The notes: a model not told the origin generated them from the letters alone. DNA of 64,000 nt from a virus (IMGVR_UViG_3300025889_000070), one strand, 5' to 3'. Counted from the first letter of the stretch, positions 1-55,487 are shown. Numbers and translations are program-made.

Positions 1-134
1 TAAAACTAGAAGATGCTGGTATTGTTTACGAAACTGGTCCTTTTACTGAAAGTCATTGGAAGGACTGTCAGAAACTACCTAACGATTGGTATGTCGCTAC
101 TCAGAGTATTGAATCGTTTGGTGTGTTGAAGTAG
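1..134 (+). CDS. C-terminal part (5' truncated by window edge) of a probable Sm/LSm(Hfq)-like fold protein
   Basis: Frame from nt 3 reads KLEDAGIVYETGPFTESHWKDCQKLPNDWYVATQSIESFGVLK*. (V)KLEDA resembles the end of Sm1 (LVLEDA); WYVATQSIESF fits the register of Sm2 (LFIRGDNIVLI). Not in the ORF track. Confidence 0.5.
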   Translation, partial: KLEDAGIVYETGPFTESHWKDCQKLPNDWYVATQSIESFGVLK

Positions 135-151
135 TCTTGTTGACGATAACA

Positions 152-367
152 ATGATGTTCCAAACAAAGACAATTAAGACTAGGACTGGGTATAGGTCTA
201 GGCCTTGGTCTTGGTCTAGGTCTAGGTCTTGGTCTAGGTCTAGGTCTGGATCTTGGTCTATGTCTTGGTCTAGGTCTTGGTATGGGGCTTGGTATGGGGC
301 TTGGTCTGGGGCTTGGTCTAGGTCTGGGTCTTGGTCTAAGTCTTGGTCTAGGTCTGGGAGTAATTGA
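152..367 (+). CDS. Ser/Arg/Trp/Gly-repeat basic peptide 1 (71 aa)
   Basis: MMFQTKTIKTR leader, then (S-R/W/G)n, ending GSN*; stop overlaps next ATG (TGATG). Confidence 0.65.
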   Translation: MMFQTKTIKTRTGYRSRPWSWSRSRSWSRSRSGSWSMSWSRSWYGAWYGAWSGAWSRSGSWSKSWSRSGSN

Positions 368-453
368 TGTTCCAAACAAAGAGAATTAAGACTAGGTCTA
401 AGTTTGATTTTGGGTCTAGGTCTAGGTATTGGTCTAGGTATGGGAGTAATTGA
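367..453 (+). CDS. Ser/Arg-repeat peptide 2 (28 aa)
   Basis: MFQTKRIKTRSKFDFGSRSRYWSRYGSN*; GGGAG SD upstream; TGATG coupling at both ends; below ORF-track cutoff. Confidence 0.65.
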   Translation: MFQTKRIKTRSKFDFGSRSRYWSRYGSN

Positions 454-653
454 TGTTCCAAACAAAGAGAATTAAGACTAGGACTAGGTCTGGGTATAGG
501 TCTAGGTCTGGGTATAGGTCTAGTTCTGGGTATAGGTCTAGGTCTGGGTCTTGGTCTTGGTCTAGTTCTGGGTATAGGTCTAGGTCTGGGTCTAGGTCTG
601 GGTCTTGGTCTAGACCTTGGTCTAGGCCTGTGTCTTACTCTGGGAGTAATTGA
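453..653 (+). CDS. Ser/Arg/Gly/Tyr-repeat peptide 3 (66 aa)
   Basis: MFQTKRIKTR leader, (SGYRSR)n core, GSN*; GGGAG SD; TGATG coupling. Confidence 0.65.
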   Translation: MFQTKRIKTRTRSGYRSRSGYRSSSGYRSRSGSWSWSSSGYRSRSGSRSGSWSRPWSRPVSYSGSN

Positions 654-787
654 TGTTCCAAACAAAGAGAGTTAAAACTAGGTCTGGGGTTAGGTCTTGG
701 TCTGGGTCTGGGTCTTGGTCTTGGTATGGATCGCGGGTAGAAAAAGATAATTGGGTCTATAATCTACCTAAGAACTACTACGAATAA
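653..787 (+). CDS. Ser/Trp/Gly-repeat peptide 4 (44 aa) with unique C-terminus
   Basis: MFQTKRVKTRSGVRSWSGSGSWSWYGSRVEKDNWVYNLPKNYYE*; followed by GAGG SD and the ATG at 798. Confidence 0.6.
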   Translation: MFQTKRVKTRSGVRSWSGSGSWSWYGSRVEKDNWVYNLPKNYYE

Positions 788-797
788 GAGGAATAGG

Positions 798-1040
798 ATG
801 AAAATATTTGATCTTGAACAAGAGATTATGAAGGCTTGGCATGTCGTAGATGACATCCAACTTCTTAATGAGAATGTCATGGAAACAGATATGTCTACTG
901 ACGATATTGCTAATGCTCTTCTTGGATTAGAAAAGCTGTACAATATGAGATTTGAAAAGGTTTTTAATACGTTTGAAGAAGTCTGCAAAGAATATCATGC
1001 AATGAGGAAACAAAATGAAAACGATTACACTCAGAGTTGA
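798..1040 (+). CDS. hypothetical phage protein
   Basis: 80-aa ORF, GAGG SD. Confidence 0.7.
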   Translation: MKIFDLEQEIMKAWHVVDDIQLLNENVMETDMSTDDIANALLGLEKLYNMRFEKVFNTFEEVCKEYHAMRKQNENDYTQS

Positions 1041-1158
1041 AGATTGCGACCAAGTTGTCATCGACGATCTGAAAGATTCTTATCATTTGAGCAATCAGTT
1101 TGATAGGGATGAAAATGAATCCAATGGAGAAAAAATATGCTTATTAGTACTAGCGTAG
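1015..1158 (+). pseudogene. Internally deleted, frameshifted paralog of 1441..1671
   Basis: First 24 codons encode the same MKTITLRVEDCDQVVIDDLKDSYH; then a jump to AAAATGAATCCAATGG, matching the 3' end of the intact copy out of frame. Confidence 0.7.
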
Positions 1159-1376
1159 ATGTAGATGTAGATGTAGATTTAGACGATTTTGACGAAGACG
1201 ACCTTATAGACGAACTTGAAAGACGTGGGTTTTACGTAAGCAAGCATAAGCCACATATCGAAGTCTTAGACAAAGAAGCTCTACAATTTTTGCTGGATCT
1301 GGTTGACAAACAGACCGAAACGTGGTATACTCGTAGAGTAAGAGAAAAATTACTGGAGATATTGTGTGGTAATTAA
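1137..1376 (+). CDS. hypothetical acidic protein (VDVDVDVD from GTAGAT repeats)
   Basis: 79-aa ORF. Confidence 0.65.
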   Translation: MLISTSVDVDVDVDLDDFDEDDLIDELERRGFYVSKHKPHIEVLDKEALQFLLDLVDKQTETWYTRRVREKLLEILCGN

Positions 1377-1432
1377 ACACGAACCACTGTTTAACACTCA
1401 ACGGGGTTGCGAACTCTAATCCAACAAAGATG
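1366..1432 (+). pseudogene. Nonsense-mutated remnant paralogous to the N-terminus of 2620..2892
   Basis: VIKHEPLFNTQRGCEL*SNKD aligns ungapped to MIKHEPIFDTDKICEHYSKKD; TAA at the TAT position. Confidence 0.7.
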
Positions 1433-1440
1433 AGATGAGG

Positions 1441-1671
1441 ATGAAAACGATTACACTCAGAGTTGAAGACTGTGACCAAGTTGTCATCGACGATCTGAAA
1501 GATTCTTATCATAGGAACAATCGGTTTGATAAGGTTGACTGTTCAAATGACGTTCTTGAGCCAGACTTTGAGTTACTCAAGGCAATTCTAACTGTGTTAG
1601 CATACTATATGCCGCATGAGGATTATGAAGAGTGGGTTAAAATGAATCCAATGGTGAAAGAAAATGACTGA
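1441..1671 (+). CDS. hypothetical phage protein
   Basis: ORF; GAGG upstream; overlaps next ATG. Confidence 0.7.
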   Translation: MKTITLRVEDCDQVVIDDLKDSYHRNNRFDKVDCSNDVLEPDFELLKAILTVLAYYMPHEDYEEWVKMNPMVKEND

Positions 1672-1987
1672 TTATAATCCTGACAATTGGGTTGTTATTA
1701 AAATGAAGTGTGATGATCCTCATTATCGTGTGCTCGCTGGTTGGAGCGGTGGATACCTTGACGGCGACAGTTGGCGTATGAACAGTGGCATTACTCGTGT
1801 AGAGGATGCCGGTGATAGATTTAACTTCTATGGATCAACTGGCAGTTGCTATAGTTGCGGTAAAGAGAGTTATACTCTACGCAACAACAATGCTCACATT
1901 TGGACACAGTTGCAAGAACTATACGGTGATAAAGTTGAAATGATGCCAGAAGAAACAGACTGGCTAGGCATGGATTGGATTATTTGA
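1664..1987 (+). CDS. conserved hypothetical phage protein (YRVLAGWSGGYLDGDSWRMNSG)
   Basis: 107-aa ORF; motif recalled from myovirus hypothetical proteins. Confidence 0.75.
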   Translation: MTDYNPDNWVVIKMKCDDPHYRVLAGWSGGYLDGDSWRMNSGITRVEDAGDRFNFYGSTGSCYSCGKESYTLRNNNAHIWTQLQELYGDKVEMMPEETDWLGMDWII

Positions 1988-1994
1988 GGCGATT

Positions 1995-2618
1995 ATGAAA
2001 GTTAAAATAGGATCTTATCCAAACAGACTCCGATCTCGTGTTTATGAGAACTATATGAGCAAGAAGTATGGTTATGTGAATTGGCCCAATGAGCATTCAC
2101 GATTTGAAAACACACTTGAATGGGTGGAAGATCGTATGCAAGATGTTTATAATGTGTTTAACTGGATTTGGTTTGATCGACGCACACAAAAAGTAAAAGT
2201 GCGTATTGATCCATGGGACACATGGAGTATGGATCATACTCTTGCTCCTATTATTTTGCCTATGCTAGTACAATTAAAGGAAACCAAGCACGGTGCTTCA
2301 CATGTTGATTTGGAAGATGTACCCAAGGAACTACACGGTAAGAAACTTACCAAGAAGCAGAAAGAACAGGGCGATGTAGATGACAAACATTTCGAACGCT
2401 GGGATTGGGTCCTGAACGAAATGATTTGGGCTTTTGAACAAAAGTGCCGTGACCACTGGGAAGAAGATTATTACGGTCCATTTATCGAAGGTGAAGATGA
2501 CGGAATCTTAGGCGGACATTTTGAATGGACCGACGACGAAGGTAGACAGAAACATCAAGAAAGAATGAGCAATGGATTTAGACTGTTTGGAAAATATTTT
2601 GAATCGCTATGGGATTGA
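1995..2618 (+). CDS. conserved hypothetical phage protein (Trp-rich)
   Basis: 207-aa ORF, GAGG SD. Confidence 0.75.
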   Translation: MKVKIGSYPNRLRSRVYENYMSKKYGYVNWPNEHSRFENTLEWVEDRMQDVYNVFNWIWFDRRTQKVKVRIDPWDTWSMDHTLAPIILPMLVQLKETKHGASHVDLEDVPKELHGKKLTKKQKEQGDVDDKHFERWDWVLNEMIWAFEQKCRDHWEEDYYGPFIEGEDDGILGGHFEWTDDEGRQKHQERMSNGFRLFGKYFESLWD

Positions 2619-2619
2619 A

Positions 2620-2892
2620 ATGATGATTAAACACGAACCAATTTTTGATACTGACAAGATTTGCGAACACTATAGCAAGAAAGATGGTGAACTATTACAT
2701 GATTTTGAAACCCAACAAGTTCAGAGATTGATAGACTATCTTGACGTTGTTAAGACTCCACACAGTGATGCATTTGATATGCCAAAATTGCACAATGATT
2801 TTAAGAAGTTTTATCAACAGTACGATGTTAGAAGAAATAAAAACTTTTCAAGTACTTTTGCCAGTCTCAGTAACTGGTACGAAACGCTGTAA
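2620..2892 (+). pseudogene. Apparent in-frame chimera: MIKHEP... N-terminus fused to the C-terminal tail of a phage radical-SAM-family protein
   Basis: First 22 aa are paralogous to the 1366 remnant; the rest (QRLIDYLDVVKTPH...DFKKFYQQYDVRRNKNF) resembles phage twitch/radical SAM C-termini (recognition from memory). Confidence 0.5.
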
Positions 2893-2900
2893 CGATAAAT

Positions 2901-4478
2901 ATGGTTATGGATATTGTAATTTGTAGTATTCCGCGAATGAGTATATATTATCCGCCAGCCGCCCCTGCACTAATCAAAGCAAGTGTACAAGCAGCTGGCT
3001 ACACTGCAACGACCGTTGACTTTGTGATTCAGTTCCATGACAAATACTTTGGAACACCAATGTGGGATCAACTTGATCAATGGCTAGTCCTTGAAACAAA
3101 TGATCCTGAATCCTATGCAATCATGAAACAAGAAGCTGATCAGTGGGCAGATCAAATGTTATCACTATCACCTAAGTGGATAGGCATAAGTGTTTTTAGT
3201 TTTGAAAGTCACAAAATAGCAAAGTTACTTTGCATTAGTATCCGTAAAAAAAGCACTGATGTAAAAATTGTCCTCGGCGGTGCTGGACTAAGCGGGGATG
3301 TATATGATGTAGGTGCTCAGTACAGAAACAACAACCTCTGCGATGAAATTATCACTGGTGACGGTGAGGCCAGTATCATTGAACTACTACGAGAAACCTA
3401 CAACGGAAAATTTGATCGATTGGATGATCTAGATCACTGGCCGCATGCAGACTTCAGTGATTACGATTTGGACTTGTACAAAGCAAACAAGCAACGCAAA
3501 AATGATATACCAACAAACAAGATGGATGTGTGGCAAGGATATGGCAATGCCTGGTATCGTAGCGACGAGATACTCACACTGCCATTGGTAGGATCAAGAG
3601 GATGTGTGCGCAAGTGTTCATTCTGCGACATTCCGCATTTGTGGCCCAAGTATAAAACTCGCAGTGCAGAAAATATTGCACAAGAAGTTATTGCACAGTA
3701 TGAGCAACATAACGTGCAGCGTTTTCACTTTACAGATAGTTTGATAAATGGCAATCAAAAGAATTTTCGTAACTTGGCGGAAATACTCAGCGAATATAGA
3801 ACACGCACAGGCGCAGACTTTACTATTACAGGACAGTACATTTGTCGTAGCGAAGAACATGAAAGTCAAGAATACTACAATCTATTGAGCAGTGCAGGCT
3901 TTAAAATTCTTGAAATTGGAATTGAAAGCGGCAGTGAAGCAGTGCGCTGGCATATGGGTAAAAAGTTTACCAATCACGACGTGGATGTACTATTGGAGAG
4001 ATTGCACAAGGCTGATATGAAGGCTGTGCTATTGTTTATTGTTGGATACCCAACCGAGACCATTGAAGACTTTCACCACACAATGGACATGCTAACAAGA
4101 TATCAGCCCTATGTAGAAAGCGGCACAGTGGTTGAAGCATGTCTTGGCGGAACTCAACACATCGATCCCAATAGTGCTTTAGGTAAAGATCCTCATATCG
4201 TTACCAGTATTGATAGCAAAGGCAACGTAGATTATTTTAATTGGACATACAGTAAAAATACAGAACTAACATTTAAAGAACGCATTAGACGTAGACTTGT
4301 TGTCATGGAACATGCACAAAGTCTAGGATATTTAAGCCCAACAAACAATCAAGAAATTGCAATTCTAAGAAAAAGATGGAAGAACGTCAATGAAACTAAC
4401 AATACAACTGCGAACAATGACTGCCTTGCAGCGCGGCCCGAACTTGCGCACCAGGGTCAACAAGCAATTACTGCATGA
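2901..4478 (+). CDS. Cobalamin-binding (class B-like) radical SAM protein
   Basis: N-terminal PPAAPALIKA...IVLGGAG B12-binding-like region; SRGCVRKCSFC CxxxCxxC; FTDSLING, IGIESGS, LFIVGYPTE. Confidence 0.85.
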   Translation: MVMDIVICSIPRMSIYYPPAAPALIKASVQAAGYTATTVDFVIQFHDKYFGTPMWDQLDQWLVLETNDPESYAIMKQEADQWADQMLSLSPKWIGISVFSFESHKIAKLLCISIRKKSTDVKIVLGGAGLSGDVYDVGAQYRNNNLCDEIITGDGEASIIELLRETYNGKFDRLDDLDHWPHADFSDYDLDLYKANKQRKNDIPTNKMDVWQGYGNAWYRSDEILTLPLVGSRGCVRKCSFCDIPHLWPKYKTRSAENIAQEVIAQYEQHNVQRFHFTDSLINGNQKNFRNLAEILSEYRTRTGADFTITGQYICRSEEHESQEYYNLLSSAGFKILEIGIESGSEAVRWHMGKKFTNHDVDVLLERLHKADMKAVLLFIVGYPTETIEDFHHTMDMLTRYQPYVESGTVVEACLGGTQHIDPNSALGKDPHIVTSIDSKGNVDYFNWTYSKNTELTFKERIRRRLVVMEHAQSLGYLSPTNNQEIAILRKRWKNVNETNNTTANNDCLAARPELAHQGQQAITA

Positions 4479-4896
4479 AGTTGACGACTTACAGGCAGAT
4501 ACCGAGTTAGAATTAGAATTTGATCCTCAAGATGCAAATCAACTTGTAATAGAACATTGGGGCAAGTACCCTATGCACATAGCTCCTGGAGAAGATATTG
4601 CATGCGAAGTTGTTAGCATAAAGTTTGATGGCATTCAGATTCATCGTAACTTGTTATACACAGCAGAATTTTATCCAAATTGGCAATACAGTGATGCGCC
4701 CAACATTGTATCAGATAGTTGTTACATAGGATATAACGGCGTATGGAGTTTGGTATTTCCCCGAGATCCTATAGGTTGGACCCTTGACTATATTGAAAAA
4801 GAAATGTTTGACTTGGGAACTGATTACAATCATCAAGAAATAGGTGATGATATAGGTGCCCAAGACTTGGCAGATTTCAAGAAAGATTTTTTTTAG
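4390..4896 (+). CDS. hypothetical protein
   Basis: 168-aa ORF overlapping the radical SAM 3' end. Confidence 0.7.
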   Translation: MKLTIQLRTMTALQRGPNLRTRVNKQLLHEVDDLQADTELELEFDPQDANQLVIEHWGKYPMHIAPGEDIACEVVSIKFDGIQIHRNLLYTAEFYPNWQYSDAPNIVSDSCYIGYNGVWSLVFPRDPIGWTLDYIEKEMFDLGTDYNHQEIGDDIGAQDLADFKKDFF

Positions 4897-4929
4897 TCAC
4901 AACACTTTAAAGCATTAAGTACTGGTACG

Positions 4930-5421
4930 ATGAGCTATAATTACAACAGCAGTGAGCCAATCAAAATTGCGCTTGCTGACCTAAACCCACGCGAACGTGA
5001 ACTGCTAACAGAAAGCAAAACATTTTGTATGTATCCTTGGATACACCTACATGCATATCCGACAGGCGAAGCATATCCTTGCTGTCATGCAGAAATGGGT
5101 GTTGGGCAGGTGGGAAACTGCAAAAACAATACCATGCAGGAGATTTGGAACAGTCCGGAGCAAAAACAGTTGCGTGTTGACATGCTAACTGAACAGCACA
5201 ATCCTGCTTGTGGACGCTGTTACGAGCAAGAAAAATCAGGTTTCTTTTCAGGCCGTCAAAGTGCAAACAAACACCACGGACATCACATTGACAGAGTGTT
5301 TGAAACACAAGCAGACGGTGGCTATGATGACTTTGAAATGACCTATTGGGATATTCGATTTAGTAATCTATGCAATTTAAGTTGCAGAAGGGTATACGGA
5401 TATTACTCCGAAACAAATTAA
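4930..5421 (+). pseudogene. Truncated SPASM/twitch-domain radical SAM protein
   Basis: FCMYPW, PCC, IWNS, CGRCY (twitch/SPASM), then DIRFSNLCNLSCR breaks before the third Cys and ends VYGYYSETN*. Confidence 0.8.
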
Positions 5422-5551
5422 AGAGATACAAGTATTTATGGACGAACTAAGCGAGTATAGTCCAATTCGCTGGGGATTTAATAACTTTATTAATTATTGG
5501 GAAGATGCAACATACGAGGAATTCAAAAATGGCACGGATGAAGGTTGTTGA
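5390..5551 (+). pseudogene. Headless C-terminal remnant of an unrelated ORF
   Basis: GYTDITPKQIKEIQVFMDELSEY...EGC* is open in another frame from the junction, with an in-frame TAA at 5378 and no start before it. Confidence 0.5.
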
Positions 5552-5675
5552 ACCATTACCAGAACCTATGTATTGCTGGTGCGTAGATTATTGGATCAAA
5601 GTACAGCACTGGCAAAATTCAATGGATCCAGAAATGCTTTGTAGGTTATTTGCAGCAACAGTTTTATTGCAATGA
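5538..5675 (+). CDS. small hypothetical protein (45 aa)
   Basis: MKVVEPLPEPMYCWCVDYW...; overlaps remnant stop. Confidence 0.5.
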   Translation: MKVVEPLPEPMYCWCVDYWIKVQHWQNSMDPEMLCRLFAATVLLQ

Positions 5676-5686
5676 ATAAATAGAAT

Positions 5687-5908
5687 ATGACTCATGAGGA
5701 TTACACTGTTGGATGTGTGACATTTCCCAAGACAAAAGAGGGTTATATTAACTTCCTAAAAGCTCAGCGTGATTATCTAATAGGAAGAAGAGCCACTATC
5801 AGATCAACAGTGCTAACAAATGTATATTATCCAGGTGAATATGAGAGAAATGGACCAATGGTAATACCTATAAAAAAAGATAAATATACAAATGGGCGTA
5901 AAAATTAA
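5687..5908 (+). CDS. hypothetical protein
   Basis: 73-aa ORF after an ATAAATA motif. Confidence 0.6.
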   Translation: MTHEDYTVGCVTFPKTKEGYINFLKAQRDYLIGRRATIRSTVLTNVYYPGEYERNGPMVIPIKKDKYTNGRKN

Positions 5909-6161
5909 TGAATCAACTGAAGTTCAAATCCCTTTAAAATTAGTTGTTGGCATAATATTTGCTATTATTTCTGCATCTTATTTTGTTTTTCATATTGAAG
6001 AGCGCATTGACTTTTTGGAAATGAAGTTAGAAAAATTTGCAATGCAATTTGAAAACTACAAAGCGCAACCCAGTAGAGGACATACCGAAATTGAAGTTCT
6101 CAAGACACAACTGGAAAATATACAAAAACAGATAGACTACATTTCTCAAGGAAAAAAATAA
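5892..6161 (+). CDS. single-TM plus coiled-coil membrane protein
   Basis: LVVGIIFAIISASYFVF hydrophobic stretch; ATAAATA at 5880. Confidence 0.7.
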   Translation: MGVKINESTEVQIPLKLVVGIIFAIISASYFVFHIEERIDFLEMKLEKFAMQFENYKAQPSRGHTEIEVLKTQLENIQKQIDYISQGKK

Positions 6162-6163
6162 TA

Positions 6164-7078
6164 GTGATTAACGCAGATGAAAACAAAGAAGCAGAAAAGA
6201 AAGAAGACGAAGGCGTAGAAGTTGGAGTCAGTAACGATTTCACTGCTGGAAGACCTGCTGAAGAACAAGCTCATGTAGGTACTGGAGCAGAAGCAAATGC
6301 AAATACTACAATTGCAGGGGTTGACTTAGAAGCACACGCAGGCGCTGAAGCACACGCTGGTGCAGGTACAGAAGTGACTAATACTACTGTTGCCGCAAAT
6401 GCAGAAGCAGTTGTTAGTGCAGAAGCAGGCGCAAGTGCCTCCTACGGTGATACCACAGTAGAAGCTCACGCAGGTGCAGAAGCACACGCAGAAGCAGGCG
6501 CACAAGCAGGTGTAAGTGGCGGCAATGCATATGCACAAGCAGGTGCAGAAGTTGGTGCAAGTGCAGAAGCAAGTACTAGTGTTAGTCAGCAAGTAGGGGA
6601 TGTAGAAGTTAAAAACGAAACATCAGTACACGCAGAAACAGGCGCAAGTGTTGGTGCTGATGCACAAGTTGGCAAAGACGGTGTAGCAGGACATGCTGGC
6701 GCACACGCAGGCGCAAGTGTTGGTGTAGATAACACAACTAGCGCATACGACAGCAACGGCAATGGTGGATCAGCAACTGCTGGTGTTAGTGTTGGAGTAC
6801 AAGCAGGCGCAGAAGTAGGCGGCGGAGCAACTATGGATGATGGTGTTGCCACTGTTGGTGTTAGCGGAGAAGTTGAATTGCTAGTAGGAGTTGATGTTGA
6901 CCTAAGCGTTAGCGTAGATACAAAGCCAGCACAAGAAGCAGTAGTTGATACTGCTAATACAGTAGCAAAAGAAACTACAAAAACCGCAGACAAAGTTGTT
7001 GATACAGCAAAAGACACTGGTAAGAAAGCAGGCGATGCTATCTCAAAACCATTTAAGAAAGTTAAGAAACCCTGGTAA
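6164..7078 (+). CDS. Ala/Gly/Val/Glu-rich repeat protein with amphipathic C-terminus
   Basis: (AEAHAG/ASVG)n alternating pattern; Lys/Thr-rich repeats at the end. Confidence 0.8.
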   Translation: MINADENKEAEKKEDEGVEVGVSNDFTAGRPAEEQAHVGTGAEANANTTIAGVDLEAHAGAEAHAGAGTEVTNTTVAANAEAVVSAEAGASASYGDTTVEAHAGAEAHAEAGAQAGVSGGNAYAQAGAEVGASAEASTSVSQQVGDVEVKNETSVHAETGASVGADAQVGKDGVAGHAGAHAGASVGVDNTTSAYDSNGNGGSATAGVSVGVQAGAEVGGGATMDDGVATVGVSGEVELLVGVDVDLSVSVDTKPAQEAVVDTANTVAKETTKTADKVVDTAKDTGKKAGDAISKPFKKVKKPW

Positions 7079-7103: not shown

Positions 7104-8234
7104 TTAAAGATTTAAATCTTTAATATTATCTTCCAGTTCCTGCCAGCAACGATTAGCAAATCCATTATAGAACCAATTATAGTTATGTTCCAGTATGGGT
7201 TTCATTTTTTCTCGCATTGCTTCACATTCATCTAAATCCATATCAGCCACACGATTTACAATGTCTGCTACCGCTTGTAATCGTTGGTCTTCGTCAACAA
7301 TGTTATCGTAGTCTTCGCTCCAGAAATCTTTAAAGGTTTTAAATCCATAACTCCGTAGATATTTTAATGCTCCACTTCCGCACAGTAGCACAAATGGCTG
7401 TTTGAGAACCATGGGTTTGAATATTTTTTCCGTTAAATGAACTCGATCAATCATTGTTTCTGCTACAACGTGTAGGAAACTTGTAGCCCAGGGCGTGTAC
7501 ACAAACTGACTCTTGTCCTTATCATGATATCTAATAGCAATTTCAGCACTGCTGTTGGTGTGTTCATCAAAACTACTAGGCATTACTGTATTACTTGGAA
7601 GGATTTCATTTATACCTCGCTGGGTATAAGGATCCTTGTCAAGTAAACTGTAAATTCCTTTGTCGGTTTCTATTAGATTTAAGAACTTGATTCTATATTT
7701 CCTTAGATCGTCAACAAGTCTAGTCGCACAAATAAATCTGTGTTCAATGGGTTTATAATCTGTGTATAACTTAATTCCATTATATAGTCTATACCAGTGT
7801 TCTGCTGCTAGCACACCATTACCAAAAAAATGTACGGGTGTACAATTATACTGGTTAAGTTGATCAATTTCCCGGGATATTTCGCTGTGTAGTACTAAAT
7901 AATTCCATTTAAAATTTGGCACCATAGTAGTTGAATCTTCTATGAACTTCTTTGTAGTCTGCCAAAATATGTCATCTAGATCATAAAATATGGGTTCAAA
8001 GCTGTGATTAACAAAATATAAAATATATTTTATATTTTCATTAAATGATATAATATTATTTAACTTTTTTAATTGTACGTACATTCTTCCGTCATTTTTC
8101 CAATGATTAACTATATGATCCTGACTACTGTCAAATCTATAATTGTTGGCAAAGATTCTGAATACACTATCATCTATATACGTTTTGTTTATAGTGTCCA
8201 GTATTTTATGATTTATATATTCTATGTCTTGCAT
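7104..8234 (-). CDS. phage protein with glycosyltransferase-like C-terminal motif
   Basis: TEKIFKPMVLKQPFVLL...LKYLRSYGFKTFKDFWSEDYD, reminiscent of the GT10-like SEK motif family. Confidence 0.55.
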   Translation of the reverse strand: MQDIEYINHKILDTINKTYIDDSVFRIFANNYRFDSSQDHIVNHWKNDGRMYVQLKKLNNIISFNENIKYILYFVNHSFEPIFYDLDDIFWQTTKKFIEDSTTMVPNFKWNYLVLHSEISREIDQLNQYNCTPVHFFGNGVLAAEHWYRLYNGIKLYTDYKPIEHRFICATRLVDDLRKYRIKFLNLIETDKGIYSLLDKDPYTQRGINEILPSNTVMPSSFDEHTNSSAEIAIRYHDKDKSQFVYTPWATSFLHVVAETMIDRVHLTEKIFKPMVLKQPFVLLCGSGALKYLRSYGFKTFKDFWSEDYDNIVDEDQRLQAVADIVNRVADMDLDECEAMREKMKPILEHNYNWFYNGFANRCWQELEDNIKDLNL

Positions 8235-31065: not shown

Positions 31066-31158
31066 GGTGAGATGCCTGAGAGGTCGAAAGGAGCGGTTTG
31101 CTAAACCGTCGTACGTTTAAAAGGCGTACCGTGGGTTCGAATCCCACTCTCACCGCCA
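31066..31158 (+). tRNA. tRNA-Ser(GCU)
   Basis: GGTGAGA/TCTCACC acceptor, G73, anticodon GCT, long variable arm, CCA. Confidence 0.93.
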
Positions 31159-40340: not shown

Positions 40341-41258
40341 ATGAAAGAACTCTGGACTGAAAAGTACAGGCCGGACACACTTGATGGTTATGTGTTTCGT
40401 GATGATGCCCAAAAGCATCAGGTCGAAGGATGGATCGCCAGTGGTATGATCCCGCATTTGTTGTTTAGTGGGGCACCTGGTGTAGGCAAGACTACACTTG
40501 CAAAGATCCTTGTCAAGCAACTCGGAATAAACGATTTAGACGTGCTGGAGATCAATGCCAGTCGTGAGAACAGTGTAGACAATGTGCGTGAACGTATCAC
40601 TAACTTTGTAGCAACTATGCCTTTTGGTGAATTTAAAATAGTACTACTTGATGAAGCAGATTACATTTCGCCAAACGGACAGGCAGCATTGCGTGGTGTT
40701 ATGGAAACGTATAGCAGCACCGCACGTTTTATCCTAACTTGTAACTATCCTAATAAGGTTATTCCTGCGCTACACAGTAGATGTCAGGGCTTTCATATCG
40801 AGAAGATTGATACCACAGAGTTTACAGCACGTATTGCTACGGTGTTGGTAACAGAAGGCGTTGAGATTAATCTGGACACGCTGGACAGTTATGTAAAGGC
40901 TACATATCCTGATCTACGCAAGTGCATCAACCTAGTGCAGATGAACAGTGTAGATGGCAAACTAGTACGTCCACAGGAATCAGACAGCGCAATGGCTGAC
41001 TACAGGCTAGCAGTTGTTGACTTGTTTAAGGAAGGCAAACTGTTAGAAGCACGTAAACTACTGTGCAGTCAGGTACGTGCAGATGAAATGGATGAACTGT
41101 TTCGCTGGATGTATGACAATCTAGAACTGTGGAGCGACACACAGGAAGGCCAGGATCAAGCAGTGCTAATCATTGCTAAGGGCCTGCGTAACATTCCAAT
41201 GGTAGCGGATCAAGAGATCAATTTATCGGCTACGCTTATTGAGTTGACTCAGATATAA
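40341..41258 (+). CDS. Clamp loader subunit (T4 gp44/RFC-small type AAA+)
   Basis: WTEKYRP, GAPGVGKTT, INAS, LDEAD, SRC; promoter TTGACA-N16-TAAACT at 40284-40311. Confidence 0.93.
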   Translation: MKELWTEKYRPDTLDGYVFRDDAQKHQVEGWIASGMIPHLLFSGAPGVGKTTLAKILVKQLGINDLDVLEINASRENSVDNVRERITNFVATMPFGEFKIVLLDEADYISPNGQAALRGVMETYSSTARFILTCNYPNKVIPALHSRCQGFHIEKIDTTEFTARIATVLVTEGVEINLDTLDSYVKATYPDLRKCINLVQMNSVDGKLVRPQESDSAMADYRLAVVDLFKEGKLLEARKLLCSQVRADEMDELFRWMYDNLELWSDTQEGQDQAVLIIAKGLRNIPMVADQEINLSATLIELTQI

Positions 41259-53547: not shown

Positions 53548-54078
53548 ATGTTACCCCGTAGACATTTCTTTACGGGTGTGCCTGGTAGTCGCTGGAGTGG
53601 CGTTAGCCAAGACATAGAGTCAAGCAAACTCTACGACACATCAGACCGCACCCCCCAAAGAACATACACTCATAACCAATATTCCGGACATGTGGGTGCC
53701 TATTTTGGCGCCGGCATGGAATTCCCTGCTAGTTTGGATCCAGCTATCCTAGATGCTCCATATACAGGTTCGGGATGTCGTTTACATAAAAGTCACGAGT
53801 GGGCTTATATGTTGGATGACATCACCAACACATATCCGGACTGTTGGATAACTTTAATTTACAGACCTGATGCTGCCAGTTTTGAATGGTGGAAGCAGGC
53901 TGGTGGTTGGAATATAAGTTATCCTAATTATGACTTTTATGTGGATGATGCTGGTATGCAACACCATATAAAGCTAATGAACGAAGCTATATTAGAGTTT
54001 TCTCATAGCCACAATTTAGTATGGCACCATATAGCAAAACACGCAGATATATTAAAAACAACATGGAAACAATCCTAG
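53548..54078 (+). CDS. sulfotransferase-like/P-loop protein
   Basis: FTGVPGSRWSG; AAGGA SD; preceded by CTAAATA and a structured leader. Confidence 0.5.
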   Translation: MLPRRHFFTGVPGSRWSGVSQDIESSKLYDTSDRTPQRTYTHNQYSGHVGAYFGAGMEFPASLDPAILDAPYTGSGCRLHKSHEWAYMLDDITNTYPDCWITLIYRPDAASFEWWKQAGGWNISYPNYDFYVDDAGMQHHIKLMNEAILEFSHSHNLVWHHIAKHADILKTTWKQS

Positions 54079-55487
54079 CACTACTAGTAGGAACTCTTTA
54101 CGGACTTGTGATTGGTATAATACCAAGCGCGGGCGCGACTACTGGTTTGGTTGCACTTTTTGGTGTGATACATTACTTTGTTAGTGAGCCATATTTAGGA
54201 GTAGTTTTTCTAATGGCAGTGGTTGCAGCAAGTACAACAGGTGATAGTTTTACAGGTATACTACTAGGCATTCCAGGTGCTAACAGCGCAGCCGCTACAA
54301 TGGTAGATGGCTTTCCACTAGCACAGCAGGGCCGTGCAAGTTATGCTATCAGTGCAGCAGTTACTACAAGTACAGTTAATGGATTGCTTTGGGGATGTTT
54401 AGTTTTCATGTTGCTTCCCTGGTATAGCAATTTGTTAATGATATTGGGTATACCTGAACTGTGGGCGTTTATAGTTCTCGCTCTTGCTACGGTTGGTTTT
54501 GTAAGTAACAGTTATTGGATTAGAAGTTTAGTTGCTATTTGCGCAGGAATATTTCTAGGACTAGTGGGCGTAGATCCTACAAATAACGAACCTAGGTTTA
54601 CACTGGGTTGGTTCTATTTGCAAGATGGACTACAATTGATGCCAGTAGTTGCTGGTTTGTTTGCAGTACCAGAATTAGTAGCAGGATTAAAGCGTACAAG
54701 TACAGCACGTATTGTTCGTAATGAACTTTGGCAAGGAGTACGTGCAACCTGGCAGCATCGTTGGCTAGCATTGCGTGGTGGTTTTATAGGTGCATTTATT
54801 GGATTGTTACCTGGACTTGGTGGCGCAATGGCGGACTGGATGGCATATGGTAGTGCTGTGGCAGCAAATCCAAAAGAACAGTTTGGTAATGGTAACATCA
54901 AAGGCGTCATAGGACCAGAAGGTGCTAACAATGCACAAAAGGCAACGTCAATGATTCCTACTGTGTTGTTTGGTATTCCAGGTGCTCCGTTTGCCGCAGT
55001 GTTAATGGCATTGTTCATGTACCTAAACTTTGAACTGGGCACGCCAGATATAGCAGCAGACACAGAATTTTTCTTTAGTCTTGCGTTTGGTTTTCTATCA
55101 GCAACAGTACTAGTAGCAATCCTGTGTTTAGTTTTTATACGAACTATCACACGTATTTGTACAGTACCTTACAAGTATTATTTCCCAGTACTATTGTTAG
55201 TAATAATTTGGGCAAGTATGCAGTACACGGGCGGATGGGAAGATTTTGCAGTATTGGCAGCATTTAGTTTATTAGGCATACTATGCAAAAACTATAAGTT
55301 TAGCAGACCAGCACTTCTAATGGCGTTTATACTCGCTAACAAGATTGAGAGTTTTACCCTACAACTCACAAGTCTTTACACAGTAGGGGATTTAATAACG
55401 AGACCTATATTTATGGCAGTGATGCTGTTTACTGTAGGTATCTTCGCATATAGTTTAAAGAGGAAAGGATCTATAGATTATGCGTAA
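54063..55487 (+). CDS. tctA: Tripartite tricarboxylate transporter permease TctA
   Basis: GIPG...AAATMVDGFPLAQQG, GPEGANNA, PT..FGIPG; multiple TM segments. Confidence 0.9.
   Translation: METILALLVGTLYGLVIGIIPSAGATTGLVALFGVIHYFVSEPYLGVVFLMAVVAASTTGDSFTGILLGIPGANSAAATMVDGFPLAQQGRASYAISAAVTTSTVNGLLWGCLVFMLLPWYSNLLMILGIPELWAFIVLALATVGFVSNSYWIRSLVAICAGIFLGLVGVDPTNNEPRFTLGWFYLQDGLQLMPVVAGLFAVPELVAGLKRTSTARIVRNELWQGVRATWQHRWLALRGGFIGAFIGLLPGLGGAMADWMAYGSAVAANPKEQFGNGNIKGVIGPEGANNAQKATSMIPTVLFGIPGAPFAAVLMALFMYLNFELGTPDIAADTEFFFSLAFGFLSATVLVAILCLVFIRTITRICTVPYKYYFPVLLLVIIWASMQYTGGWEDFAVLAAFSLLGILCKNYKFSRPALLMAFILANKIESFTLQLTSLYTVGDLITRPIFMAVMLFTVGIFAYSLKRKGSIDYA

Follow-up and report, generated by a model that had tools for sequence, protein, structure and literature searches.

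A mobile two-part phage module of a predicted Sm-fold protein and tandem Ser-X repeat micro-genes

Introduction

The eukaryotic proteins SmD1, SmD3, SmB and LSm4 have Arg-Gly tails. LSm-like proteins of phages include the GoF family of T4, described in a paper whose abstract mentions no repeat-peptide partner (PMC12152347). The Arg-rich dipeptide repeats encoded by the hexanucleotide expansion of C9ORF72 bind RNA and low-complexity proteins, and RS and RGG regions, like Arg-rich dipeptide repeats, bind RNA (PMC10637751). The glycofibril TLP-2 is an orphan with no known gene (bioRxiv 10.1101/2025.09.30.679562). Here we present the analysis of a 64,000-nucleotide stretch of DNA from a virus (IMGVR_UViG_3300025889_000070), read on one strand and referred to in its whole length as the window. 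Its first 787 nucleotides hold one copy of a mobile two-part module, which consists of an acidic protein of the Sm fold, as predicted, and of one to about ten tandem micro-genes, usually coupled, for peptides in which Ser alternates with a second residue (Ser-X peptides, in which X is mostly Arg, Trp or Gly).

A description of a module that combines an Sm-like protein with Ser-X peptides was not found in the literature and databases searched, and the statement of an earlier note on this DNA, made from the sequence of the window alone, that no such module had been described in phages agrees with our literature searches. As far as searched, the module is widespread, unannotated and undescribed. 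The evidence for its two parts, for their linkage and for the reading frame of the arrays is given below, together with a tentative function and the explanations that compete with it.

Gene organization

All features of the module lie on the + strand. The window opens inside the Sm-fold gene, of which the 3' end is present at 3..134 (43 codons and a TAG stop of a gene for an 85-amino-acid (aa) protein). After a gap of 17 nt, the first Ser-X repeat peptide gene (152..367, 71 aa) starts at the first ATG of the sequence ATGATG and has no obvious Shine-Dalgarno site. It is followed by gene 2 (367..453, 28 aa), the ATG of which overlaps the stop codon of gene 1, by gene 3 (453..653, 66 aa), the ATG of which overlaps the stop codon of gene 2, and by gene 4 (653..787, 44 aa), in which the repeat core decays into the non-repeat tail RVEKDNWVYNLPKNYYE. 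The internal joins all read TGATG, the A of the TGA stop being the first base of the next ATG, and GGGAG is found 6 nt 5' of every internal ATG. The leaders of genes 1 to 4 are, in order, MMFQTKTIKTR, MFQTKRIKTR, MFQTKRIKTR and MFQTKRVKTR; in the bodies of the open reading frames (ORFs), Ser alternates mostly with Arg, Trp and Gly, with some Tyr, Lys and Met.

The earlier note had described four chained and coupled ORFs of 71, 28, 66 and 44 aa with TGATG overlaps, GGGAG sites and the leader MFQTK(R/T)(I/V)KTR, all of which is borne out at 152-787. It had further called the 42-bp junction invariant. This junction unit, which comprises the GGGAG Shine-Dalgarno sequence, the TGATG stop/start and the leader codons, occurs at 356..397, 442-483 and 642-683; two copies are identical and the third has 2 mismatches, so that the wording was slightly overstated. 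The 27-nt core of the junction was observed three times, against zero occurrences expected in shuffled sequences. The repeat cores form a tract of TCT-NGG hexamers at 180..729 that is broken by the junction units, and Tandem Repeats Finder reported two arrays of period 6, with 73.8 copies at 180-626 and 8.2 copies at 681-729. Scans for promoters and terminators gave results no better than those for shuffled sequences.

Coding frame of the arrays

An array of the hexamer GGTCTN is open by construction in four of the six frames, two of them on the + strand, which read Ser-X and Gly-Leu, and two on the - strand, which read Pro-Arg and Asp-Leu/Gln, and open frames alone therefore prove nothing. 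Nor can the window alone settle the frame, because the variable base is synonymous in both the Gly-Leu and the Pro-Arg frame. The frame was settled by comparison with eight IMG/VR contigs that share the common leader and with 80 loci fetched by means of the upstream protein. The hexamer differs among lineages (GGTCTN, GGTCGN, GGTCAN or GGAGCN) and the Ser codon with it (TCT, TCG, TCA or AGC/AGT), and the Ser-[Arg/Trp/Gly] reading survives in every case. Across the relatives, the nucleotides of the leaders vary and their basic-aromatic pattern stays. In the distant arrays of loci L009 and L012 the nucleotides of the junction differ as well, with the stop codon, the overlapping ATG and a basic leader (MYTKRNKVRS and MITRRNLWRS) kept in the Ser-X frame.

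Several other readings were considered and rejected. An antisense (Pro-Arg)n product is ruled out by the switches of the Ser codon, since AGC turns Pro-Arg into Pro-Ala and TCA creates antisense TGA stops; the same switches rule out the (Gly-Leu)n reading of the +1 frame. In lineages with TCG (L051, L040, L092 and L041) the +1 frame reads (Gly-Arg)n, similar to an Sm tail, which is treated as coincidental because the other lineages do not conserve it. A fusion of the Sm-like gene to a repeat tail by read-through or frameshifting was rejected as well: the frame relation varies among loci, and the peptides have start codons of their own.

The codons at the X positions are nearly always NGG (AGG/CGG, TGG or GGG). 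This regularity is read as the footprint of a fast turnover of units around a single Trp codon, because Trp has only TGG, and Arg and Gly are one mutation away from it. The only lineage that lacks Trp, L084, has NGC and TAC codons at X, with Tyr in place of Trp. The same regularity, the atypical codons of the arrays and their four open frames could also be taken to mean that they are untranslated DNA or RNA repeats, for example a protein-binding array or a structured RNA, that merely look like genes. We regard this as scarcely credible: the hexamer changes wholly from lineage to lineage and yet the Ser-X pattern, the start codon, the Shine-Dalgarno site or overlap and the leader are kept, no Rfam match was found (window 1-6000, E <= 1), and the prevalence of NGG is explained by the sole Trp codon and disappears in L084 together with Trp. 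On these comparisons of sequences, the Ser-X ORFs of the + strand are taken as real genes.

Distribution and linkage of the two parts

One search grouped the Sm-like family into 546 clusters at 90% identity, a second gave 408 representatives at the 50% level, and at least 227 IMG/VR loci have been confirmed to carry it. The phages in which it is found range in size from 34 kb to more than 150 kb and differ in G+C content, and Nitrospinales chromosomes have it as well. Linkage to the peptides was assessed at those related loci that have at least 150 nt of downstream sequence (n = 69). A Ser-[R/W/G] run was present on the same strand, at most 1 kb 3' of the Sm-like gene, at 68 of the 69 loci, as against none of 63 upstream and none of 63 on the opposite strand; the association of the two families across phages, which the earlier note had wished to see checked, is thereby upheld, and of the computational outcomes that the note had named as refuting its reading, none was obtained. 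The sole exception, L076, carries a three-unit remnant.

The start of the peptide gene overlaps the stop of the Sm-like gene at half of the loci compared in this respect (33 of 66) and lies 0-25 nt after it at 22 more. Most loci have one peptide gene and some have 3 to 10, the window having four. At L120, L146, L217 and L201 the order is reversed, the Ser-X gene being followed directly by the Sm-like gene. Three small genes of higher G+C content are placed between the Sm-like gene and the array at L096:5929-6574 and likewise at L003, L004, L018 and L019; at L003, L004 and L096 the first peptide gene behind such inserted, unrelated genes has an AAGGAGG Shine-Dalgarno site of its own, and arrays of the L096 type are followed by a terminator-like hairpin. 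The pair is also carried by contigs of metagenome-assembled genomes and by two Nitrospinales chromosomes, in which the repeat cores have decayed.

A reverse search that started from the pattern (TCTNGG)6 yielded many unrelated simple repeats, namely pure SW, SR and SG runs in large proteins, and the pattern is therefore not diagnostic on its own. The true micro-genes among the results mostly adjoin an Sm-like gene, which occasionally lies downstream of them. A search for near-identical DNA with window 1-4500 gave no match among 50,697 phage records.

Structure and conservation of the Sm-like protein

The full-length protein of 85 aa was recovered from relatives (L001 and L096) and not by leftward extension of the window; the fragment in the window is identical to the C-terminus of P0002, to which P0001 is 88% identical. 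An AlphaFold2 model of P0001, based on an alignment of 74 sequences, consists of a helix followed by bent strands and has a predicted local distance difference test (pLDDT) score of 95.2. The best 50 Foldseek matches of the model in the PDB are all Sm/LSm proteins, with template modelling (TM) scores of 0.55-0.67. With VIA-align, the highest Z score was 10.0, to the archaeal SmAP1 structure 1loj (SmAP bound to uridine monophosphate, UMP), and Hfq structures gave Z 6.7-7.4. A total of 33 chains reached Z >= 8; among the matches listed (27), all are proteins or domains of the Sm/LSm fold, with residues 5-85 covered. An Sm/LSm fold is accordingly predicted for the upstream protein, and with high confidence, in line with the earlier note, which had fitted the gene fragment to Sm (pLDDT 95, Foldseek top 50 all Sm/LSm, Z 10.0).

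At the level of sequence the family stands apart. The protein had no match in Pfam (E <= 0.1), PHROG or PADLOC, the Sm1/Sm2 signature (Pfam LSM, PF01423) was not found in it, and neither Pfam nor NCBIfam gave a match to the Hfq family or to an Hfq-type Sm2 motif. The NCBIfam model MM0924 matched weakly (E 0.002, far below the cut-off of the model), a profile search of PDB sequences found nothing below E 0.78, and in the Atlas search an archaeal LSM cluster ranked no higher than 92, with a score of 0.83. A search of phage proteins returned a single record, MW202825 (uncultured), in which the gene is unannotated, and no T4 protein was among the top BFVD matches. The model supports membership of the Sm superfamily by fold, and functional membership is putative.

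The protein probably forms a ring, as its modelled fold would suggest. Natural tandem duplicates exist (P0122 and P0148), and the model of one of them has a predicted TM score of 0.65; being a single chain, it yields no information on an interface.

Strands were numbered in the order in which they appear in the model, which places loop L3 (residues 38-40) between strands 2 and 3 and loop L5 (residues 75-77) between strands 4 and 5. These two loops have the highest column entropy among the 74 relatives (2.52 and 2.57 bits, respectively), so that the canonical nucleotide-pocket loops are the least conserved segments of the protein and a conserved pocket was not found. Invariant or nearly invariant residues are Y28, Y30, G32, V50, T53, G54 and E79, and conservation is strongest in strand 5 (IESFG, with Glu79 invariant) and at Y28/Y30/G32. 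The net charge is negative in 89% of the Sm-like relatives. Since the protein is acidic and its canonical pocket loops are least conserved, direct binding of RNA by it appears less secure than the earlier note had assumed in its tentative proposal of an RNA chaperone joined to a system for condensation or compaction.

The same observations bear on the view that the ring is a conventional RNA chaperone of the Hfq/SmAP type, to which the peptides would add RNA-binding tails or regulators without having to contact the ring. Among its structural neighbors are the archaeal SmAP with UMP (Z 10) and Hfq (Z about 7), and for the LSm-like phage family that includes T4 GoF a link to the stability of mRNA has been reported (PMC12152347). 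We nevertheless judge a conventional chaperone to be quite unlikely, given the lack of a Pfam LSM or Hfq match, the variability of L3 and L5 and the prevailing negative charge.

Properties of the repeat peptides

Composition was determined for 68 distinct peptides. Their median length is 64 aa (about 35-95 aa), and they contain 39% Ser, 15% Gly, 14% Arg and 11.5% Trp, with a mean net charge of +9.7. The Ser register is occupied by Ser in 86% of cases. At the X positions Gly makes up 33%, Arg 25.5% and Trp 25%, and they follow one another nearly at random. The leader follows the pattern M-x-x-[K/R]-[K/R]-x-K-[Y/F/W]-R; across the peptides it keeps a Met, one to three residues, a cluster of Lys/Arg, an aromatic residue and an Arg. 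The peptides have no export signal. A peptide search of 5.8 billion proteins gave one match, and the Atlas search with a peptide gave no usable match.

Peptides with a charge of about +10 and 11.5% Trp, encoded next to an acidic partner, might be host-directed toxic polycations. They would harm the host or shut it down, for example through binding to rRNA or the ribosome in the manner of Arg-rich dipeptide repeats, or through disturbance of membranes in the manner of Arg/Trp antimicrobial peptides, with the Sm-like protein serving as chaperone or antidote until their release. Cationic lysis peptides of phages are known, and the fast turnover of both sequence and copy number is typical of genes for host interaction. 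Arg-rich dipeptide repeats, moreover, bind native RNA including rRNA (PMC10637751). At most loci, however, the module is located in replication and not in lysis modules, and with Ser at every second residue the peptides are far less hydrophobic than Arg/Trp antimicrobial peptides, for which reasons we think a toxin rather unlikely.

Proposed function

The function that we prefer, with somewhat less than even confidence, is that an acidic Sm ring docks polycationic peptides which bind nucleic acid. The peptides would be disordered polycations in which Ser spaces the side chains of Arg and Trp, and these side chains would bind polyanions, with RNA or single-stranded DNA as the likeliest targets. 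Binding of RNA in the canonical pocket would not be the main task of the Sm-like ring; it would dock the peptides instead, probably through the conserved peptide leader. A ring so equipped would have several basic tails and would correspond, in split form, to the eukaryotic Sm cores with their Arg-Gly tails. Early in infection, this complex could act as a chaperone of nucleic acid, or coat or condense it. Slippage of hexamers would make the array expand and contract, and a change of one base in NGG would switch X between Arg, Trp and Gly. A more specific proposal, which we consider possible though doubtful, is a split device resembling a ribonucleoprotein, in which the acidic Sm ring loads several Arg/Trp dipeptide-repeat microproteins as multivalent 'stickers'. 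With these it would coat, anneal or condense RNA or single-stranded DNA, or jam the ribosomes of the host, in the early phase of infection, and its strength would be tuned as the hexamer arrays rapidly lengthen and shorten.

Four points weigh against the docking of peptides on a ring. The docking is suggested by charge complementarity and by the choice of residues that are conserved, and the ring is predicted from the fold alone. In a few cases a true Ser-X gene has no Sm-like gene next to it; one such gene lies between the genes for a primase-helicase and a DNA polymerase, and one record without a local Sm-like gene has an Sm-like gene elsewhere (E 1e-40). Finally, in the long genes of the window TCT, AGG and GGG account for 5%, 13% and 7% of the codons in their respective families, as against 84-90% in the peptides, and these rare codons may limit the yield of peptide.

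Genomic context and carrier phages

Clustering of the neighboring genes at the 80 loci revealed no conserved neighbor besides the peptide genes and no conserved enzyme. Recurrent neighbors, with roles in replication, recombination and nucleotide metabolism, are a primase-helicase, a Sak4-like annealing protein, a Cas4-like exonuclease, ThyX, a dCMP deaminase and DUF932. Those small neighboring genes that were scanned against Pfam, NCBIfam and PADLOC had no match.

Small, fast-evolving genes of an early region, variable in copy number and carried on a mobile cassette, would also suit an anti-defence decoy, in which Trp repeats flanked by Ser/Gly, or else the entire polycation, bind to and block either a defence protein of the host or the nucleic-acid guide of that protein, as they might do by imitating the Gly/Ser-Trp 'hooks' to which eukaryotic Argonautes bind. 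The SWS/GSW composition is indeed like that of GW-type motifs. We know, however, of no established Trp-binding pockets in prokaryotic Argonautes, and with neither a PADLOC match nor a conserved neighbor to point to defence, a decoy is improbable.

The same cassette was found in a 53-kb phage genome rated 100% complete, with an Sm-like protein 88% identical and the same leader. The phage of the window is much larger than this carrier, and its genes include those for a T4-type clamp loader, seven tRNAs and the trio PrkA-YeaH-SpoVR. Ser is encoded by AGT/AGC in 75% of cases in the long genes of the window, which encodes a tRNA-Ser(GCT) at 31066-31158, and by TCT in 89% of cases in the peptides. 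Because of this difference in Ser codons the cassette is compositionally foreign to its carrier, and its presence in two different phages together with the atypical codons fits a mobile cassette.

A B12-binding radical SAM gene (2901-4478) is located downstream of the module and is followed by a twitch/SPASM fragment (4930-5421), a 163-aa ORF that matches only positions 1-126 of the 398 of the NCBIfam model for radical SAM proteins with an N-terminal twitch domain (E 9e-42). The latter ORF ends just where the radical SAM Cys motif (CNLSCRR...) begins; it may represent a gene that has been cut short or shifted in frame, or else a twitch/SPASM domain that stands alone. These genes raise the question whether the peptides are precursors of ribosomally made modified peptides, matured by the radical SAM enzyme and the twitch/SPASM fragment, or scaffolds modified at Ser by phosphorylation or glycosylation. 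A conserved leader, a variable core and several copies are in keeping with precursors, as are the radical SAM genes 2-4 kb downstream, and every repeat in the (X-Ser)n core of the pond-water glycofibril TLP-2 carries a modified Ser (bioRxiv 10.1101/2025.09.30.679562).

The comparison with other carriers speaks against this. Of five other module-bearing phage records, one of them 100% and one 90% complete, none contains PrkA. Three, among them the 100% complete genome of 53 kb, also lack radical SAM, and in the remaining two it is distant from the module. The leader has a length of only about 10 aa, the peptides carry no signal for export, and the residue that varies in TLP-2 was small enough for Ala to be used in its model. 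As a general explanation, modified-peptide precursors were therefore rejected, there being no conserved maturase nearby and no radical SAM conserved with the module, and we consider them highly improbable. The five records also speak against a second proposal, made in the earlier note, that the peptides might be phospho-regulated by the YeaG Ser kinase. A member of the PrkA family is present at 46372 as stated, but the link to the module fails because PrkA is not conserved with it (0 of 5).

Further observations concern other parts of the window. Two ORFs downstream of the module, at 1015-1158 and 1435-1671, have almost identical N-termini (MKTITLRVEDCDQVVIDDLKDSYH...), the first of them stopping at 47 aa; the pair looks like a local duplication. 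A low-complexity ORF of 304 aa at 6164-7078 (Ala/Gly/Glu/His/Val, with AHAGAEAHAGAG-like repeats) is accompanied by long overlapping antisense ORFs and had no Pfam or NCBIfam match. The PrkA-DUF444(YeaH)-SpoVR trio (46372-51053), a gene for a TctA-family transporter (54021-55487), a gene for a ClpA/B-like AAA ATPase (62679-63998), the T4-type clamp loader (40341-41258) and the seven tRNA genes are an unusual host-like set for a phage.

Annotation and significance

Gene callers skip the arrays or predict antisense ORFs in their place. Contigs often end close to the module, 19 of the 80 doing so at most 500 nt after the Sm-like gene, and at L009:6650-6750 and 7110-7210 gaps of N lie inside arrays; the repeats evidently break metagenome assemblies, so that copy numbers are underestimated. 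Recognition of the module explains a recurrent 'microsatellite' of phage metagenomes and corrects a frequent mis-annotation. The module is a candidate for a step of phage replication or host takeover that is as yet unknown. If the peptides are made, they would be a new class of genetically encoded dipeptide-repeat microproteins and a natural minimal system for the study of Arg/aromatic 'sticker' polymers with a folded partner. Should the split device be real, it would be a viral, prokaryotic counterpart both of the Sm cores with Arg-Gly tails and of the toxicity of Arg-rich dipeptide repeats.

Comparison with known systems

With arrays of modified-peptide precursors the locus shares tandem small genes, a conserved N-terminal leader and a variable core. 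It differs from them in that no conserved maturase or recognition protein is encoded near the phage genes and in that the core is a compositional repeat with no defined motif. TLP-2 and the phage peptides have the same grammar of primary structure, and as nothing links the two, the resemblance is a lead only. The peptides also depart from the RS domains of SR proteins: Arg occupies 25.5% of the X positions, no domain is attached, and PrkA is not conserved.

Archaeal SmAP and bacterial Hfq, which provide the best structural matches, are likewise small single-domain proteins of the Sm fold (about 70-85 aa). They have no match to the phage protein at the level of sequence and no partner repeat peptides, and the residues of their RNA pocket are not conserved in it. 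The T4 family of GoF, MotB.1 and Frd.2 and the marine Sm-like protein 3BY7 are further small proteins of phages, or putatively of phages, with LSm-like folds. None of them is detectably related in sequence to the Sm-like protein of the module, and 3BY7 aligned with only Z 6.8 and 7% identity (VIA-align).

The eukaryotic Sm/LSm proteins with Arg-Gly tails show the same combination of an Sm fold and a basic, Arg/Gly-rich low-complexity segment of dipeptide repeats. In the phage module the parts are encoded by separate, coupled genes, the repeat is Ser-X with Trp as the third major residue, and the Sm-like protein is acidic, without the Sm1/Sm2 signature and with pocket loops that are not conserved. 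The likeness between the Arg-Gly tails and the phage peptides is proposed as an analogy, and homology of the tails is not claimed.

The poly-GR and poly-PR products of C9ORF72 are, like the phage peptides, polycationic dipeptide repeats encoded by a hexanucleotide repeat (PMC10637751). Arg takes about a quarter of the X positions in the phage peptides, unlike in poly-GR and poly-PR. The C9ORF72 repeats arise in human cells through non-canonical translation and are pathological, whereas the phage peptides would be the products of regular genes, with start codons and ribosome-binding sites, that are kept by selection.

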